DNA of 64,000 nucleotides from Spirochaetia bacterium (GCA_963662795.1 OY759746.1:2176001-2240000), one strand, 5' to 3'; positions 1-38,178 are shown, numbered from the stretch's first letter. Notes: a model not told the origin generated them from the sequence alone. Program-made: numbers and translations.

Positions 1-35
1 AATATGAAGAAAAGGAATTATTGGCAGATGAATAA
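1..35 (+). CDS. 3' end of YefM/Phd-type antitoxin (partial, runs off window)
   Basis: Frame from nt 3 reads YEEKELLADE*. Its TAA (33-35) overlaps the start of the toxin ORF (ATGAATAA), the usual TA coupling. Confidence 0.6.
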   Translation, partial: YEEKELLADE

Positions 36-288
36 GCTGTTCACAGATGAGGCATGGAAAGACTATTTATATTGGTTTGAAAATGATAGGAAGCAATTAA
101 AAAAGATTAATGATCTTATAAAAGAAATTGAAAGATCACCATTTGCTGGAATAGGAAAACCAGAATCTCTAAAATATAATTTGAAAGGATTTTGGTCAAG
201 AAGGATTGATCATGAACATAGAATAGTGTATCAAGTCGAAGGTTCTCAGCTAAGAATAATATCTTTAAAATATCATTACGAAAAATAA
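28..288 (+). CDS. yoeB: Txe/YoeB family toxin (RelE superfamily)
   Basis: AWKDYLYW...KKINDLIKEIERSPFAGIGKPESLKYNLKGFWSRRIDHEHRIVY is the Txe/YoeB signature. Likely start is ATG 28. Confidence 0.93.
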   Translation: MNKLFTDEAWKDYLYWFENDRKQLKKINDLIKEIERSPFAGIGKPESLKYNLKGFWSRRIDHEHRIVYQVEGSQLRIISLKYHYEK

Positions 289-322
289 TAAAGTAAATAA
301 TTAAGAGAAAAAAATGGAAGAA

Positions 323-354
323 GTCCGGCCTTGGCGTTGCCGTGCGGCCTGGAC
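323..354. repeat. Conserved pre-attC hairpin B, copy 1
   Basis: GTCCGGCC-TTGGCGTTGCCGTGC-GGCCTGGAC; recurs at 1313, 2706 and 3776. Confidence 0.9.
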
Positions 355-372
355 AAGAAGGGGACGTACTGC

Positions 373-544
373 TGCTAACAGCGGGTAAGAAGCTGCGCTC
401 GGAGTACCTCGCTTGGGCTTCGCCATATTTTGCTTTTATGAAATCAGAACAATTAATATTTCATCATTTCAGATGTGACAAAAGCTGTCAAAATGATTGA
501 AAAGTATTAATCGCAAAACATCTTTTACCCGCGGGACGTTATGC
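373..544 (+). other. attC-like integron recombination site 1
   Basis: R'' TGCTAAC 373-379 and R' GTTATGC 538-544. Inner arms GCGGGTAAGA and TCTTTTACCCGC, with spacer GGGAC before GTT. Confidence 0.85.
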
Positions 545-568
545 TCAATACCAGCCGCAAGAGGAAAT

Positions 569-593
569 CGCCCGGACCTCCGGCCAACGGGCG
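569..593. repeat. Conserved post-attC hairpin A, copy 1
   Basis: CGCCCG-GACCTCCGGCCAA-CGGGCG; near-identical at 1542, 2969 and 4018. Confidence 0.9.
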
Positions 594-665
594 AGAGAGA
601 AAGAGAAACAATAAGTATAGATTATACTGTAAAAGATAAGAAATGCTTATAGAAAATGAAGGATC

Positions 666-699
666 TTGACAATAATATGTAATAACAATATAATTACAT
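666..699 (+). promoter_or_regulatory. Sigma70 promoter with overlapping palindromic operator for mazEF-like cassette
   Basis: TTGACA (666-671)-N17-TATAAT (689-694). Inverted repeat ATGTAAT...ATTACAT spans 677-699. Confidence 0.85.
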
Positions 700-712
700 T
701 AGAGGTAGAGAA

Positions 713-961
713 ATGATAGTTTCTGTTGTTTCCATTGGCAATTCAAAAGGAATACGTCTTCCAAAAGCATTATTAAATCAACTAAAAATATCAGATAAAC
801 TGGATTTAGAAGTAGAAGATCAGAAAATAATACTTAAACCTGTATCTAATAATCCAAGAGCAGGATGGAATTTGGCTTTTAAAGATATGCATAAAAAAAA
901 TGAAGATCAATTATTGATAAATGAAAGTATTGATTCTAAGGATTTCAAATGGGAATGGTAA
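713..961 (+). CDS. AbrB/MazE/SpoVT family antitoxin
   Basis: N-terminal IGNSKGIRLPK swapped-hairpin motif; GAGG RBS; overlaps the toxin. Confidence 0.92.
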   Translation: MIVSVVSIGNSKGIRLPKALLNQLKISDKLDLEVEDQKIILKPVSNNPRAGWNLAFKDMHKKNEDQLLINESIDSKDFKWEW

Positions 962-1278
962 TAAATCAGTATGAAGTTTATCTGGTTGAGCTTGATCCAA
1001 CAAAGGGACATGAAATACAAAAAACAAGACCATGTTTAATTATTTCCCCCGATGAAATGAATCATAATATAAGTACTGTTATTATTGCTCCAATGACAAC
1101 AAAATCACATAATTATCCGACACGTGTAGAATTAAAGTTTTTAGGAAAAAAAGGATGGATAGTTTTAGATCAGATAAGAACAATAGACAAACAGAGATTA
1201 TTAAAAAAAGTTGGTAAGATTGAAATTAAAGAAATTATAAAAGTTAAACAAATCATTAAAGAAATGTTGGTTGATTGA
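955..1278 (+). CDS. PemK/MazF family toxin (mRNA interferase)
   Basis: LDPTKGHEIQKTRPCLIISPDEMN...DQIRTIDKQRL. Confidence 0.93.
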   Translation: MVINQYEVYLVELDPTKGHEIQKTRPCLIISPDEMNHNISTVIIAPMTTKSHNYPTRVELKFLGKKGWIVLDQIRTIDKQRLLKKVGKIEIKEIIKVKQIIKEMLVD

Positions 1279-1312
1279 TAAAAAAAAATAAAATAATAAT
1301 GCATGAGAATAA

Positions 1313-1344
1313 GTCCGGCCTTGGCGTTGCCGTGCGGCCTGGAC
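1313..1344. repeat. Conserved pre-attC hairpin B, copy 2
   Basis: Identical to 323-354. Confidence 0.9.
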
Positions 1345-1364
1345 AAGAAGCGGCTGGTACTGGA

Positions 1365-1518
1365 GCATAACAGCGAATGACCGGTTCCGGCTGTTTCTAA
1401 GGAAACAGCCTCCACCCAAATTGCCGAAATAATACATGTTAAGAATAATGGAATAGAGTATAAACTTTTGGAGTGAAAAACACCATCGGCAACTTCGGTC
1501 ATTCGCGAGACGTTATAC
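1365..1518 (+). other. attC-like site 2
   Basis: R'' GCATAAC 1365-1371 and R' GTTATAC 1512-1518. Arms GCGAATGACCG and CGGTCATTCGC are perfectly complementary; spacer GAGAC. Confidence 0.88.
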
Positions 1519-1541
1519 GAAAAACCACCCCAAGAGAAAAC

Positions 1542-1566
1542 CGCCCGGACCTCCGGCCCACGGGCG
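1542..1566. repeat. Conserved post-attC hairpin A, copy 2
   Basis: CGCCCGGACCTCCGGCCCACGGGCG. Confidence 0.9.
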
Positions 1567-1640
1567 AGGATCAAGACAAAGTAAAAGTGATTGATTATTC
1601 ATTTCAAAATATTAACAGTAACCAGAAAGAGAGGGGTTTT

Positions 1641-1979
1641 ATGAAGAGTTTTCCTGATTTTATGAAAAGTGAATTAAATAAAATTGATCAAAGTCAGCAA
1701 AACACGAAAGATATTGTAGGATATTATTATACTGGAAAAGACGGTTCTCAAATAGCTTTTTAGGAGTGTTACTCAGACAGAGAATCAATAAAACACAAGC
1801 ACGATCTTGATGAGCATATAGTTTGTGTAAGCGGAGAATACATTGCATATTTTACTGAAGAAAAATATATACTACATGCTGGAGATGAAATACATATACC
1901 AAAAAAAACTGAGCAGTGGGGGAAAAGTATAAAAGGAACTAGAACAATTCATTTTTTTGGTGGGAAAAGGATAAAATAA
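1641..1979 (+). pseudogene. Cupin-domain protein with in-frame nonsense codon
   Basis: GAGGGG RBS, then MKSFPDFM...DGSQIAF*ECYSDRESIKHKHDLDEHIVCVSGEY...AGDEIHIPK...TIHFFGGKRIK*. The single TAG is at 1761-1763 (probably from TGG). Confidence 0.75.
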
Positions 1980-2015
1980 AGAAATAGAACTGGGAAACCA
2001 TAAAGTGATTAAGAC

Positions 2016-2053
2016 TTGACATATACGGCAATAATAAATATACTATACGTATA
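2016..2053 (+). promoter_or_regulatory. Sigma70 promoter and palindromic operator of the second TA pair
   Basis: TTGACA (2016-2021)-N17-TATACT (2039-2044); palindrome TATACGTATA at 2044-2053. Confidence 0.8.
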
Positions 2054-2063
2054 GAGGTATAGT

Positions 2064-2303
2064 ATGAACAGGAAGTTGACATTAAGCCTTGATCCTAAAA
2101 TAATTGATTTTGCGCATGATTTTTCAAAAAAATCAAATCAGCCTATTTCGAAAATAGTAGAGAATTACTTTTTAGAATTAAAAAATAAAAATACTTCTAA
2201 ATATGCAAAAGATGTAGAAGATTTGTATGGAATTCTTGAAGGAATAGAAATACCCGATAAAAAAGAAATGAGAAAAGCATTTTATGAAAAAAATATTAAT
2301 TGA
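2064..2303 (+). CDS. DUF6364-like (RHH) antitoxin
   Basis: KLTLSLD...AHDFSK...ISKIVENYF; overlaps the PIN toxin gene. Confidence 0.8.
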   Translation: MNRKLTLSLDPKIIDFAHDFSKKSNQPISKIVENYFLELKNKNTSKYAKDVEDLYGILEGIEIPDKKEMRKAFYEKNIN

Positions 2304-2700
2304 TTTAAATGTAATTCTTGATTTCTTAAATAAAAGAGAAGGACATGAAAAAGCTGCTGATATATTAAATATGTGTTCGTCTGGAAAAGCAGTAGGCTAT
2401 ATCTGTGCTCATGAAATAACAACACTTTCCTATTTTCTTGGAAAAATAATTAAAGAAAAAACGAAAAGAAACAAGATAATAAATGGAATACTGGAGTTAT
2501 TAAATATAATATCAATAGATAAGAAAATATTAAAAGAAGCATTATTGTCAAAAATTGATGATTATGAAGATGCGGTAATTGATGAGTCTGCTAAAAAAGA
2601 AAAAATAGAATATATAATAACAAGAGATTTAAAAGATTTTAAAAATGCAAGCATTAAGGCAATTACACCAGAAGAATATTTAACCAGATCAATATCATAA
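2284..2700 (+). CDS. PIN-domain (VapC-like) toxin
   Basis: ILIDLNVILDFL...DYEDAV...IITRDLKDF acidic PIN motifs. Confidence 0.92.
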   Translation: MKKILIDLNVILDFLNKREGHEKAADILNMCSSGKAVGYICAHEITTLSYFLGKIIKEKTKRNKIINGILELLNIISIDKKILKEALLSKIDDYEDAVIDESAKKEKIEYIITRDLKDFKNASIKAITPEEYLTRSIS

Positions 2701-2705
2701 AGAAC

Positions 2706-2734
2706 CCAAGCCTTGGCGGTGCCGTGCGGCTTGG
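2706..2734. repeat. Conserved pre-attC hairpin B, copy 3 (covariant stem)
   Basis: CCAAGCC-TTGGCGGTGCCGTGC-GGCTTGG. Confidence 0.88.
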
Positions 2735-2752
2735 AAGAAGGGGTGGTTCATC

Positions 2753-2944
2753 GTATAACAGCGATTATTTCGCTGCGCTCCCTATGGTCGCTTGGGCTCC
2801 TGCCAGTTGAGCTGGCAGATCGCCATATTTTGTTTTCATAAAACCGGAACAACATGTGTTTTATGCTCTTCAAGTTTGTAAAAACCAAATAAAAGTATTT
2901 TAGAGTTTAGTCACAAAACATCGAATAATCGCGAGACGTTCTCC
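2753..2944 (+). other. attC-like site 3
   Basis: R'' GTATAAC 2753-2759 and R' GTTCTCC 2938-2944. Arms GCGATTATTTCG and CGAATAATCGC; spacer GAGAC. Confidence 0.85.
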
Positions 2945-2968
2945 GAAATACCGCCCCAGGAGAAGGAT

Positions 2969-2993
2969 CGCCCGGACCTCCGGCCCACGGGCG
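2969..2993. repeat. Conserved post-attC hairpin A, copy 3
   Basis: Identical to 1542-1566. Confidence 0.9.
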
Positions 2994-3064
2994 AGGATAA
3001 GTTAAGAAAATAATACAACAAATGAGTGTGAAAATTGTTAAATGATTATTAAATAGTTGACAAC

Positions 3065-3093
3065 TTGACAATTAAAATAATTACAAATATAAT
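3065..3093 (+). promoter_or_regulatory. Sigma70 promoter, probably producing a leaderless mRNA
   Basis: TTGACA (3065-3070)-N17-TATAAT (3088-3093). ATG is at 3100 and there is no SD sequence. Confidence 0.8.
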
Positions 3094-3099
3094 TAATAT

Positions 3100-3339
3100 A
3101 TGAAAACAATGCAAATAGGAGATTTTAAAGCTCAATTCTCAAAGGTTCTCGAAGAAGTAAAACACGGAGAGGAAATAATAATATCTTATGGTAAACAGAA
3201 GAAAAATGTTGCAGTAATAATTCCATATGAAGAATACAAAGAAAAAAATAGAATTAAATTGGGCTTGTTGAAAGATAAAGCAAGTTATAAATTTAATAAT
3301 GATTATGAAATGACTGAAGAGGAGCTTGTAAGTCTTTGA
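3100..3339 (+). CDS. Phd/YefM family antitoxin
   Basis: MKTMQIGDFKAQFSKVLEEVKHGEEIIIS...VAVIIP. Confidence 0.9.
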   Translation: MKTMQIGDFKAQFSKVLEEVKHGEEIIISYGKQKKNVAVIIPYEEYKEKNRIKLGLLKDKASYKFNNDYEMTEEELVSL

Positions 3340-3733
3340 AATATCTCCTTGATACACATTATTTAATCTGGAGCATAATTGACCCGGATAAAATAGATAA
3401 AAAGAGGAAAAAGATATTATTGGATGTGAATACAGAGAAATATATAAGTCAGATAAGCTTTTGGGAAATATCAATAAAATATTCGCTTGGGAAATTAGAA
3501 TTAAAAGGAATTACTCCTGAAGAATTACTAGAGGCAGCAATAAAATCAGGATTTCAAATATTGGAATTAGAAACAAAAATACTTGCACATCATACAAACT
3601 ACCGAAAAATCCCAACCACAAAGATCCTTTTGACCGTTTAATAATTTGGGAATGTATTTGCAATGATTATATTTTATTAACAGCAGATGAAAAAGTAAAA
3701 GAATATAAAGAAAACGGTTTGAAAATAGTATAG
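3336..3733 (+). pseudogene. VapC/PIN toxin, frameshifted
   Basis: YLLDTHYLIW...ISFWEISIKYSLGKL. After ~3587 the conserved HKDPFDRLIIWE...LLTADE tail continues in another frame to TAG at 3731-3733. Confidence 0.85.
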
Positions 3734-3775
3734 ATAAAATACAATCTACAAATAAATAAATGAAAATAAGAAAGC

Positions 3776-3806
3776 CCCAAGCCTTGGCGGTGCCGTGCGG
3801 CTTGGG
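3776..3806. repeat. Conserved pre-attC hairpin B, copy 4
   Basis: CCCAAGCC-TTGGCGGTGCCGTGC-GGCTTGGG. Confidence 0.88.
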
Positions 3807-3823
3807 AGAAGGGGCGGTACTTC

Positions 3824-3994
3824 CGAGAACAGCGGTTAAAGCGCTTCGCTCGCAGTAGCTCACTTGGGCTCCTGGCTGTTGAGCAGCCAGTTCGCCAAAC
3901 ATCGCAGTTTAGAATAAAAGTATAAGAATCAAGAAATTTGTAAAATAAGCAAATCATAATTTGCGATGCTTCGCTTAACCGCGGGACGTTATCG
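3824..3994 (+). other. attC-like site 4
   Basis: R'' CGAGAAC 3824-3830 and R' GTTATCG 3988-3994. Arms GCGGTTAAAGCG and CGCTTAACCGC; spacer GGGAC. Confidence 0.85.
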
Positions 3995-4017
3995 GCAATG
4001 GCTGGGCAAGAGGAAAT

Positions 4018-4042
4018 CGCCCGGACCTCCGGCCCACGGGCG
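4018..4042. repeat. Conserved post-attC hairpin A, copy 4
   Basis: Identical to 1542-1566. Confidence 0.9.
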
Positions 4043-4114
4043 AAGAATAAGAAATATATATAAAAAAAGAGTATAATAAATGTAAATTAATTCTTGGAAG
4101 GAAAAAGAAAGAAA

Positions 4115-4550
4115 ATGACAAACATAATTATTTTTCTCATGGGGGAGGTCCACTTCCAATACTTGGAGAGCCAAGTCATAAAGAAATGATATCATTTATG
4201 AAAAAACTTCCTGAAGAACTTGATAAACCGAAAGCAATAATAGTAATAAGTGCACATTGGGAGGAAGAAGTACCAACAATAATTGGAAATAATAATCCCT
4301 CGCTTTATTATGATTATTATGGATTTCCCAAGGAAGCATATGAAATAAAATATCCGGCCCATGGAAATGTTGAGTTTGCAAAACAAATTAAACAATTATT
4401 CGAGAAAAACAATATACAGGCAGTGATTGATGATAAGCGTGGATTGGATCATGGAGTCTTTATACCATTATTACTGATGTATCCGGAAGCAGATATACCA
4501 GTAATCCAGATATCATTGGTAAAAGGATTAAGGCCGAAGGAGCATTTATC
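4115..4550 (+). pseudogene. LigB/DODA-type class III extradiol dioxygenase, 5' frameshift and 3' truncation
   Basis: SHGGGPLP is out of frame with ATG 4115. ISAHWEE, YYDYYGFP and RGLDHGVFIPL are present. Similarity stops at ~4550, where attC5 begins. Confidence 0.85.
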
Positions 4551-4712
4551 AGAGGATAAGGCGCATCGCTCCCTATGGTCGCTTGGCCTACGGCATATTT
4601 TGCTATCATTAAAACAGTTCAAATTATGTTTTACTCTATTTAAATATATTCCCAAGACTATTACGTTGAAGAAGATTATAGCAAAACATCGCTTATCCTC
4701 GGGACGTTATGC
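4550..4712 (+). other. attC-like site 5, lacking R'' and hairpin B
   Basis: Arms GAGGATAAG and CTTATCCTC, spacer GGGAC, R' GTTATGC 4706-4712. Internal CGCTCCCTATGGTCGCTTGG is shared with attC3. Confidence 0.8.
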
Positions 4713-4724
4713 TCAATACCAGCC

Positions 4725-6068
4725 TGTGCAATCAGGACATAGGTAACACTTTTTATCACGACATAGGTAACACCACACATGTAAATCTTTTAGTACAATC
4801 CTATTTAGGAGGACTGAGAGATGCCATGGAAGGAGACCAATGTTATGGATCAGAAAAAAGAATTTGTTCTGGAAGCACTCAAGGGAACAATGAATTTTAC
4901 CAGTCTGTGTGCGAAATATTGTATCAGTCCAAAGACTGGCTACAAGTGGAAAGAGAGGTTTCTTGAGCAAGGCTTTGAAGGACTTGAGGAATTATCAAGA
5001 AAACCAAAAACAAGCCCAGAGAGTTTATCAGAAGAAGAGATACTCTCTATAATTAAAATCAAACATCAAAAGAAGAATTGGGGAGCTAAAAAGATCAGAG
5101 AGATTTACGCTAATAAATATCCTGATAAGAGGCTGCCCTCAGTGAGTACATTTAATCGATTTTTTCAGAAGGCTGGATTAGCCAAGAAGCGTCGAAAGAA
5201 GAGAACAGCTGAAGGTATTAGAATTGAAAATCGTGTAGAAGCAACACATCCAAATCATGTATGGACGGTGGATTTTAAAGGATGGTGGTATACCCCTAAC
5301 AGAGAACGAGTAAATCCGCTTATAGTACGAGATGATCATTCCAAGTACATTTTAACAATTAAAACTCTGGATAAGGGTGATACAGCAAGTGTTTACAAGG
5401 AATTCGACCAATTATTCAGGGAATACGGTCTTCCAGAGGTAATTAGATCAGATAATGGCCCTCCTTTTGCGAATATGCGAAGTTTATTCGGTCTGACAAG
5501 ATTATCAGTTTGGTGGCTATCATTAGGGATTAAGTTGGACAGAATAGAACCAGCATCACCTTATCAGAACGGAGCACATGAACGGATGCATTTGGATATG
5601 GCGAATGAATTGGAAGGCCAGATTTATGGAGATATCAGGTATCATCAGAAGATGTTTGAAAAGTGGCGTGTAGAATATAATGAAGAGCGACCGCATGAAT
5701 CACTGAATATGAAAACACCCTCTACAGTATATAAAGTATCAGAGCAGGAATATTATGGGGACTTTGTGGAGTTTGCATATCCGATAAATTACAGAAAACG
5801 TTTTGTAAATAACCGAGGATTTGTCAGCTTTAAAGGTGTTCGCTATTTTGTTGGGAATCCTTTTGGGGGTTATAACATAGGCATACATCCCACTGAAACA
5901 GGGCAGCTGGATGTGTGGTTCGCAGACTCTCTTCTTGGGTATTTTGACCAGGAAAGTTTGTTGCTGGTACCGGAAAAGAAGTATACACTTATGAAAAGAA
6001 AAAGAAGAAAAGTGTTACCGATGTCGTGACACAAATCCTTTACCGATGTCGTGAAACTGGACCCAACA
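4725..6068 (+). mobile_element. IS481 family insertion sequence
   Basis: TGT...ACA ends. Subterminal repeats GACATAGGTAACAC occur twice on the left and TTACCGATGTCGTGA twice on the right. Confidence 0.85.
4821..6029 (+). CDS. IS481 family DDE transposase
   Basis: MPWKET..., HTH, WTVDFKG, IRSDNGPPF, QNGAHERMH, YNEERPHESL. Confidence 0.93.
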   Translation: MPWKETNVMDQKKEFVLEALKGTMNFTSLCAKYCISPKTGYKWKERFLEQGFEGLEELSRKPKTSPESLSEEEILSIIKIKHQKKNWGAKKIREIYANKYPDKRLPSVSTFNRFFQKAGLAKKRRKKRTAEGIRIENRVEATHPNHVWTVDFKGWWYTPNRERVNPLIVRDDHSKYILTIKTLDKGDTASVYKEFDQLFREYGLPEVIRSDNGPPFANMRSLFGLTRLSVWWLSLGIKLDRIEPASPYQNGAHERMHLDMANELEGQIYGDIRYHQKMFEKWRVEYNEERPHESLNMKTPSTVYKVSEQEYYGDFVEFAYPINYRKRFVNNRGFVSFKGVRYFVGNPFGGYNIGIHPTETGQLDVWFADSLLGYFDQESLLLVPEKKYTLMKRKRRKVLPMS

Positions 6069-38026: not shown

Positions 38027-38100
38027 TACGTCCAAGAGGATTCGAACCTCTGACCCTCGCCTTAGAAGGGCGATGCTCTATCCAGCTGAGCTATGGACGC
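38027..38100 (-). tRNA. tRNA-Arg (TCT)
   Basis: Minus strand GCGTCCATAGCTCAGCTGGATAGAGC...CT-TCT-AA...GGTTCGAATCC...TGGACGTA. Confidence 0.95.
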
Positions 38101-38105
38101 GCGAG

Positions 38106-38178
38106 TCGGGATAGAAGGACTCGAACCTTCGGTCTCCTGCTCCCAAAGCAGGCGCCTTAGCCACTAGGCTACATCCCG
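38106..38178 (-). tRNA. tRNA-Pro (TGG)
   Basis: Minus strand CGGGATGTAGCCTAGTGG...CCTGC-TT-TGG-GA-GCAGG...GGTTCGAGTCC...ATCCCGA. Confidence 0.95.

Follow-up and report, generated by a model that had tools for sequence, protein, structure and literature searches.

Hairpins framing the attC sites of a spirochaete cassette array: a candidate two-part accessory structure

What keeps a 25-nt hairpin almost unchanged at the head of one gene cassette after another, beside attC bodies that differ strongly among themselves? The question is raised by the first 4724 nt of a 64,000-nt stretch of the genome of a Spirochaetia bacterium (GCA_963662795.1, OY759746.1:2176001-2240000; the window, below), which form the right end of a long integron-type cassette array. 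Each complete cassette there carries at its head the motif CGCCCGGACCTCCGGCCNACGGGCG, here called hairpin A, whose position 18 (N18) is its one variable base, and at its tail a second hairpin, B. Rather than standing alone as an RNA motif, hairpin A makes up half of a two-part frame around a composite cassette site. We favour the reading, at a probability of roughly 55%, that it is the downstream accessory arm of this site, clasped with hairpin B on the folded bottom strand of the excised, circular cassette. Among the evidence for this reading, the two ends of a cassette are complementary to each other, and N18 matches one base of the hairpin B loop of the same cassette.

Hairpin A and the composite site

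The genome is a single 3.93-Mb contig with 39.7% G+C, of which the cassette array (G000:C1:1846000-2186000, 330 kb, at least 194 attC junctions, of which 166 precede a hairpin A) makes up ~8.4%. An initial annotation of the window had placed the 25-nt motif at four positions, 30-31 nt after the G of the attC GTT, with one variable base, and this description holds well beyond the window. In the window, hairpin A occupies 569-593 (N = A) and 1542-1566, 2969-2993 and 4018-4042 (N = C), beginning 31, 30, 31 and 30 nt downstream of the G of GTT at 538, 1512, 2938 and 3988, respectively. The rest of the window contains no further match at up to three mismatches, and the chance expectation from 100 shuffles is 0. 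Genome-wide there are 166 copies with up to four mismatches, all on the + strand from C1:1850162 to 2180042 (330 kb), and 146 of them fit the pattern exactly (N18 = G in 83, A in 32, C in 31). Hairpin A starts 30 nt from the G of GTT in 109 copies, 31 nt in 42 and 29 nt in 12, a total of 163 of 166; the other three could not be placed. A match to a known dispersed repeat was one of the findings that the initial annotation had named as overturning its view; a REP/MITE-like repeat, with scattered copies in both orientations and no fixed partner, does not agree with the confinement of all 166 copies to one strand of one 330-kb array, 29-31 nt past the attC GTT.

The attC bodies, measured from AAC to GTT, range from 75 to 187 nt (median 164, 159 junctions) and belong to many families, with L''/L' pairing, so the contrast drawn at the outset between an invariant hairpin and divergent bodies is real. 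For Treponema, attC sites of 63-68 bp, and at most 132 bp, are reported (PMC3607928).

The composite site spans ~290 nt and reads, in order, hairpin B, AAGAAG, a 20-nt arm (arm5), the attC body (R''-L''...L'-R'), G|TT with a second 20-nt arm (arm3), a purine-rich spacer (C)AAGAGnnAAT, and hairpin A. Hairpin B has an outer stem of 8-9 bp with a bulged T, an internal loop TT/GTGC, a 3-bp inner stem and an apical loop of 3-5 nt. Both of its stems covary across copies, the outer one between GGCC/GGCC and AGCC/GGCT and the inner one among GGC/GCC, GCC/GGC and GAC/GTC. On the + strand both hairpins are flanked by purine tracts. The elements of hairpin A and the sites of the window are as follows.

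Hairpin A, outer stem: 6 bp, positions 1-6 with 20-25
Hairpin A, inner stem: G7-C17, A8.C16, C9-G15, C10-G14
Hairpin A, bulge: 2 nt, N18 and A19
Hairpin A, loop: TCC triloop
323..354, + strand: hairpin B of unit 1, tail of a cassette starting upstream of the window; triloop GTT at 336-338; outer stem GTCCGGCC/GGCC(T)GGAC, internal loop TT/GTGC, inner stem GGC/GCC (3 bp)
360..379, + strand: arm5 of unit 1, ending in R'' AAC
377..540, + strand: attC body 1, from R'' AAC to R' GTT
538..557, + strand: arm3 of cassette 1, beginning at G|TT and complementary to the arm5 at 1352-1371
569..593, + strand: hairpin A copy 1; N18 = A at 586, matching the middle T (1327) of the same-cassette B triloop GTT
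1313..1344, + strand: hairpin B of unit 2, tail of cassette 1 (MazE/MazF pair); triloop GTT at 1326-1328
1369..1514, + strand: attC body 2
1542..1566, + strand: hairpin A copy 2; N18 = C at 1559, matching G 2719, the central base of triloop GGT in the tail of cassette 2
2706..2734, + strand: hairpin B of unit 3, tail of cassette 2; outer stem CCAAGCC/GGCTTGG; triloop GGT at 2718-2720
2757..2940, + strand: attC body 3
2969..2993, + strand: hairpin A copy 3; N18 = C at 2986, matching G 3790, the central base of triloop GGT in the tail of cassette 3
3776..3806, + strand: hairpin B of unit 4, tail of cassette 3 (Phd/PIN pair); triloop GGT at 3789-3791
3828..3990, + strand: attC body 4
4018..4042, + strand: hairpin A copy 4, final copy along the genome, with N18 = C at 4035; the cassette that it heads (LigB fragment) has lost the tail B
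4547..4724, + strand: partial fifth attC without hairpin B; R' GTT at 4706-4708; an insertion sequence cuts arm3 after 19 nt and no hairpin A follows

Variation within hairpin A is consistent with this fold. Among 39 distinct variants, the change restores Watson-Crick pairing at positions 8/16 (normally A.C) in eight of nine variant types, and pair 1-25 shows A-T and T-A double changes as well as several mismatches; the count leaves out six matches in high-GC DNA without attC context (L010, L023, L054, L055, L058 and L066) and two atypical loci (L015 and L039), and L106 and L113 are single matches of the same high-GC kind. The atypical locus L039, in a Treponemataceae assembly, has three A-like copies in tandem within ~200 nt of G+C-rich DNA, without a recognisable attC, and one of these copies carries a compensatory change at pair 3-23.

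Of 41 related genomes searched, seven contain hairpin A. They belong to the window's own genus, to another genus in its family and to two more families of the class; G039, from one of these two families, has a single copy with three mismatches. A scan for the exact core in one genome per species returned 58 loci, nearly all in Spirochaetia or in short contigs binned elsewhere. A few single exact-core matches in high-G+C genomes have no attC context and look like chance. A metagenome scan yielded 119 stretches. The motif is identical across genera and in one other family, where the attC bodies differ, which extends the sequence-level conservation first noticed in the window. In three metagenome contigs (L093, L094 and L103), hairpin A stands after a G+C-rich attC of a different family, and the tail hairpin is CGCCC-TCC-GGGCG-like and is not B.

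Matching of head and tail within a cassette

The crossover is at G|TT, as in integrons, and the classical complementarity across it is here lengthened from 6 to ~20 nt. The arm3 of one junction is complementary to the arm5 of the next in 130 of 155 cassettes, against 52 of 159 for the two arms of the same junction, 36 of 155 for shifted pairs and 11% for random pairs. Predicted duplex energies agree, at -19.0 kcal/mol for arms within a cassette versus -9.8 kcal/mol for arms at array junctions. In relatives, cassette heads beside attI-like junctions start with G|TT-arm3-spacer-A and have no attC upstream. The crossover thus splits the site, so that each cassette has arm3 and hairpin A at its head, and hairpin B, arm5 and the attC body at its tail. 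Because these halves match only within one cassette, the full structure can form only in the excised, circularised cassette.

The fuller list holds 194 attC junctions with R''/L pairing, all of the imperfect-palindrome type. Hairpin A stands at 158 of their cassette heads; 18 heads have a different hairpin, whose loop is (G/A/T)TCC(T/A), and the remaining 18 have something else. Across the 193 consecutive junction pairs, a head A goes with a tail B in 148, and the arms are complementary in 140 of these; head A with a TCC-loop tail and TCC-loop head with tail B were both found in none. The alternative flank type is seen at L068 4960-5030, 5790-5860, 6040-6150 and 6860-6940, with head and tail hairpins whose stems covary around a fixed (G/A/T)TCC(T/A) loop, and with an extra head-tail helix of 8-9 bp beyond the arms (TTTCGCCCC with GGGGCGAAA; CCGTGCCC with GGGCACGG).

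The attC bodies assort independently of the arms that adjoin them, with mosaic breakpoints at AAC and at GTT. Linkage between arm5 and the attC body that it touches is 0.05, compared with 0.46 between the two sides of a body and 0.41 between the two arms of a cassette. Over all junctions of the array, the attC body behaves as if it were an exchangeable module. Metagenome DNA contigs join the spacer and hairpin A to other arm types, which is expected and not decisive. Together with a cassette order that varies between relatives, these joins give indirect evidence that cassettes are excised and integrated.

Within this framework, N18 is Watson-Crick complementary to the middle base of the hairpin B loop of its own cassette in 138 of 146 cases. 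The controls give 75 of 133 for A and B at the same junction (56%, the background) and 77 of 127 for offset pairs. Where head A, tail B and complementary arms occur together (140 cassettes), loops GTT or ATT accompany N18 = A, loops GGT or TGT accompany C, and loops TCC, TTCCA or TTCC accompany G; the variants ATT and TGT alter the first loop base and retain the matched middle one. When N18 was shuffled within arm type, none of 10000 shuffles reached the observed 135 matches of 138 (mean 105.6, maximum 121). Collapsing similar cargo leaves 102 clusters in 107 cluster-state combinations, of which 104 are matched, and one six-member cargo family has both the A/GTT and the G/TCC-type states, each matched. 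The association is also reproduced outside this array: on metagenome contigs 31 of 31 cassettes conform, and the cargo of 22 of these is absent from this genome; at relatives' loci the figure is 15 of 16 and, by eye, eight of eight in G011 and two of two in G002. All three complete cassettes of the window conform (586 with 1327, 1559 with 2719 and 2986 with 3790).

The middle base of the B loop explains 0.88 of the entropy of N18, and much closer positions explain far less: 0.46 for arm type (12-30 nt away), 0.14 for the adjacent 6-nt spacer, 0.12 for the 6 nt after A and about 0 for the attC body, with 0.04-0.21 for the other variable positions of B. None of the allele pairs is confined to one arm type: each is found with several, and with every attC body family. 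The association thus skips nearer sites, which argues for selection on the pair rather than plain linkage, and selection appears to keep one base pair between the two accessory hairpins. This evidence is statistical and consistent across samples, and it suggests a tertiary contact between A and B. Such a contact had been proposed in the initial annotation through another register, GGCCNACGG of A with CCGTGCGGCC of B; the idea of contact survives in the form of N18 and the B loop, and that register does not. Longer A-B duplex registers around N18 were considered by reasoning from the listed copies, and none fits all three alleles past the single pair.

Folded strand, recombinase and the weighing of readings

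Several features point to the bottom strand as the folded one. By predicted energy, 100 of 148 distinct attC bodies and 122 of 148 arm duplexes are more stable as bottom strand. Among 33 distinct arm pairs, the single conserved non-Watson-Crick position of the arms is C.A on the top strand in 24, which makes it G.T on the bottom, and it is G.T on the top strand in none; the A8.C16 mismatch of hairpin A is likewise G.T on the bottom strand. The asymmetry is weak elsewhere, with 6 A.C versus 2 G.T in the B outer stem and 10 versus 5 in the other pairs of A. Hairpin A is intact in all ten cassettes whose longest open reading frame (ORF) lies on the opposite strand, and the toxin-antitoxin (TA) cassettes of the window have their promoters downstream of A (666-694 and 3065-3093, each with 12 of 12 consensus positions, and 2016-2044, with 11 of 12). 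The bottom-strand bias, the intact A beside reversed cargo, the position of these promoters and the within-cassette match to B together lead us to favour a role at the level of DNA, probably in the circular form and on the bottom strand.

The tyrosine recombinase next to the array (339 aa, L068 3782-4801, C1:1846782-1847801) is co-oriented with the cassettes, and the first cassette head (G|TT-arm) follows ~150 nt past its stop codon at an attI-like junction. The same layout occurs in G011, where a 46%-identical homologue stands beside the array. Among solved structures, VchIntIA matches the array-adjacent recombinase best (E 1.8e-37); where VchIntIA has 66 residues (2a3v, residues 173-238) the recombinase has 24, so that the IntI-specific insert is missing. 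Against the integron-integrase model TIGR02249 it reaches 200 bits, short of the cut-off of 265, and leaves model positions 173-229 unaligned; against the XerA-like NF040815 it reaches 214.5 bits, just short of the cut-off of 220. Its closest named relatives are from Clostridia and are annotated 'site-specific tyrosine recombinase/integron integrase'. At its N-terminus it carries an extra domain of 62 residues (beta-beta-alpha-beta-beta-alpha), beyond the range matched by Xer and IntI structures. Pfam gave no match in these 62 residues, and a Foldseek search with a second look by VIA, in which they were not folded alone, returned matches mainly to residues 63-337 (XerA, VchIntIA and lambda Int). 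The array thus has the attC sites, the crossover and the co-oriented cassettes of an integron, and the recombinase beside it is not a canonical IntI. A canonical intI-like gene, spanning the insert region, lies far from the array at ~412 kb of C1 (L002 1219-2184 and downstream); it is split by a frameshift and flanked by insertion-sequence transposase genes. Intact canonical intI copies exist elsewhere in G005, G008 and G011, and G020 has a frameshifted copy divergent to its A-bearing cassettes.

In the reading that we prefer, hairpin A and hairpin B frame the composite site, and in the circle the two arms would pair as a ~20-bp helix that places A and B at its base, where the bulged N18 of A would pair with the middle loop base of B and close the site as a clasp. 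The folded strand would be the bottom strand, as in classical attC. Its strictest version, in which A and B make up a DNA clasp that would close in the excised circle and nowhere else, with this pair of N18 and the B triloop at the lower end of the 20-bp arm helix, we hold tentatively, as less likely than not. For a free cassette, such a clasp could stabilise the folded site that is competent for integration, or mark it for the recombinase, and array junctions, with mismatched arms and unmatched A and B, would be poorer substrates. Hairpin A is near-invariant while the stems of B covary freely, which suggests that A is also read by a protein.

An RNA function had been among the first proposals for hairpin A, and in its most developed form A would serve the cassette messenger RNA as a 5' leader hairpin for stability, processing or insulation, with B as the matching 3' hairpin. 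We consider this unlikely. It draws on many relatives, where a conserved module ATAAAAATGTTAG-N17-18-TGTAAAAT between attC and A would put A a few bases past the predicted transcript start (A-tract, TTAG, 17-18 nt, TGTAAAAT; L075 1870-1960 and 3255-3340, L019, L043 and others); this promoter-like module is what keeps the proposal alive. It draws also on the purine-rich tracts around A, on the cargo, which lies on the strand of A in 130 of 140 cases, and on the ACCTCC of hairpin A, which we take to resemble an anti-Shine-Dalgarno sequence. Yet A stays intact where the cargo is reversed, the TA promoters lie downstream of it, and its conserved mismatches are A.C on the sense strand. The distance to the first ORF or start codon varies from 5 to 660 nt, which rules out a translation element. 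The Infernal/Rfam search proposed for the window gave only two transfer RNAs (tRNAs) at the gathering score (Rfam 15, whole window), and the four weak matches at E<=10 in window 250-4800 touch neither hairpin A nor hairpin B nor attC; a search for terminator-like sites, G+C-rich hairpins with a T run behind them, found none on either strand of window 1-4800. Processing, insulation and self-cleavage thus find no support. The matched N18 and B loop would lie 0.5-3 kb apart in a cassette RNA, and a read-through RNA would adjoin the A and B of the same junction, which match only at background (56%). Two metatranscriptome runs contain 9 and 11 short contigs that touch the units, without ends or strand and with DNA carry-over possible, and were not used as evidence.

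The invariance of hairpin A, including its loop and bulge, across genera and one other family is more than structure alone needs, and it would be explained if A were a duplex protein-binding site, an imperfect palindrome CGCCCG-N13-CGGGCG whose hairpin is incidental. The binder could be a dimeric accessory protein or the recombinase's extra 62-residue N-terminal domain, as with the arm-type or accessory sites of tyrosine recombinases, and the symmetric changes at pair 1-25 would also suit a palindrome. We think this improbable, since changes at 8/16 restore pairing in the asymmetric part of the motif, a Watson-Crick relation of N18 to B would be unexpected over ~260 nt through the site or 0.5-3 kb through the cargo, and the hairpins at the alternative cassette heads have stems that covary and a TCC-type loop that stays the same, which indicates that the fold is what is kept. 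Less probable still is that A and B are functionless parts of a species-specific attC repeat copied with each cassette, the match reflecting three inherited lineages. N18 follows the B loop far more closely than it follows sites at a distance of 1-30 nt, every allele pair is combined with several arm types and all the attC body families, the match survives in a cargo family with two states, and A is identical across genera and one other family despite differing attC bodies; all this sits poorly with copied lineages, in spite of there being only three main allele pairs and of the near-identity of attC repeats in sedentary integrons (Treponema attC families share >85% identity; PMC3607928). The register of the initial annotation, in which GGCCNACGG and CCGTGCGGCC would open both hairpins into an A-B duplex, is very improbable: two 4-nt blocks are indeed complementary (GGCC with GGCC, ACGG with CCGT), but both are already paired in stems supported by covariation, the B segment varies (GTGC, GTAC, GAGC, CTATC, CTAAC) with A unchanged, and that internal loop accounts for only 0.14 of the entropy of N18.

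Several points weigh against the accessory-arm reading itself. In many relatives (G020 and several Spirochaetia assemblies) hairpin A lies ~85 nt past GTT, behind an unstructured, AT-rich insert with the promoter-like module, with short arms and with B still 13 nt before AAC; the geometry is therefore not fixed, and what A keeps to is the cassette head, not an exact distance. There are three main allelic states only (A/GTT, C/GGT and G/TCC or TTCCA), and the loop position was chosen post hoc, the chance of full complementarity at one of three positions being ~5% for three alleles. A lone Watson-Crick pair is a weak contact, and no adjacent pair covaries with it. The sole copy with N18 = T (G005) precedes a B with a TCC loop, a mismatch; this copy is disrupted upstream by an insertion sequence and its arms match poorly, and its A and B may come from different cassettes. 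The copies and genomes compared are kin, junctions were found and loops parsed by heuristic custom scripts, and the strand argument consists of predicted energies and mismatch types.

Surroundings, known systems and meaning

TA pairs make up the cargo of three cassettes of the window: MazE with PemK-MazF at 713-1278, DUF6364 with PIN_3 at 2064-2700 and Phd-YefM with PIN at 3100-3641, where the PIN ORF looks short (101 aa). The LigB-family dioxygenase ORF at 4186-4746 covers profile positions 41-141 of 269 only and runs into the partial attC that has no hairpin B, so the last cassette looks truncated. An insertion sequence at 4725-6056, with ends GGACATAGGTAACAC and GTGTTACCGATGTCG, cuts the arm of the last junction; beyond it the arm resumes (GCCGCAAGAAT), and no hairpin A follows. 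A related insertion-sequence end disrupts a cassette head in G005 (L079 ~10500). The two tRNA genes of the window are adjacent, at 38027-38178 on the - strand.

The array shares with integron attC sites the imperfect palindrome R''(..AAC)-L''...L'-R'(GTT..), the G|TT crossover, the one-strand arrangement and a favoured bottom-strand fold. It differs in that the palindrome runs ~13 nt past the R box, two accessory hairpins frame a ~290-nt site, head and tail hairpins covary at one base pair, and the adjacent recombinase has no IntI-specific insert. Sedentary chromosomal integrons are known for near-identical attC repeats, as in Vibrio cholerae, and resemble this array in its size, its similar sites and its many TA cassettes; the conserved unit there is attC, whereas here the bodies are diverse and hairpin A is almost invariant across genera. 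The attP of CTX-type phages is a folded single strand recombined by XerCD. A Xer-type recombinase without the IntI insert would thus act on a folded single strand there as here, which fits the XerA-like enzyme beside the array, but the phage has one integration site and no cassette array, and we know of no accessory hairpins or head-tail matching in it. The ends of IS200/IS605 elements such as IS608 carry subterminal single-stranded DNA hairpins, and distant base-pairing defines the cleavage site; hairpins and base pairs outside helices thus take part in site recognition in both cases, with a HUH transposase, a different element type and a different geometry in IS608. The arm sites of lambda att and the direct repeats of attI1 are accessory (arm-type) sites of tyrosine recombinases and are bound by protein as duplex. 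Like hairpins A and B they are conserved elements that flank the crossover core and are themselves uncut; unlike them, the evidence here points to folded hairpins and a base pair between them. The listings returned by a literature search, from which this is judged, contain no description of accessory hairpins around attC or of head-tail covariation.

Integron recombination sites are usually viewed as one folded hairpin whose outer limit is the 7-bp R box. The functional unit here appears about twice as long, split by the crossover and complete only in the excised circle, and integron-finding software would mis-delimit such sites. If the reading is right, this would be the first sequence evidence, for any integron-type system, that a recombination site in single-stranded DNA contains a tertiary (bulge-loop) base pair, and compensatory mutation would offer a concrete test of whether cassette sites use three-dimensional DNA structure. 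The recombinase, which could be Xer-like and lack the IntI insert, could then tell free cassettes from resident array junctions, a possible mechanism favouring re-insertion of free cassettes over excision from the 330-kb array. Together with the insert-less recombinase next to the array, such a site would bear on how single-strand recombination evolved from Xer-type enzymes.

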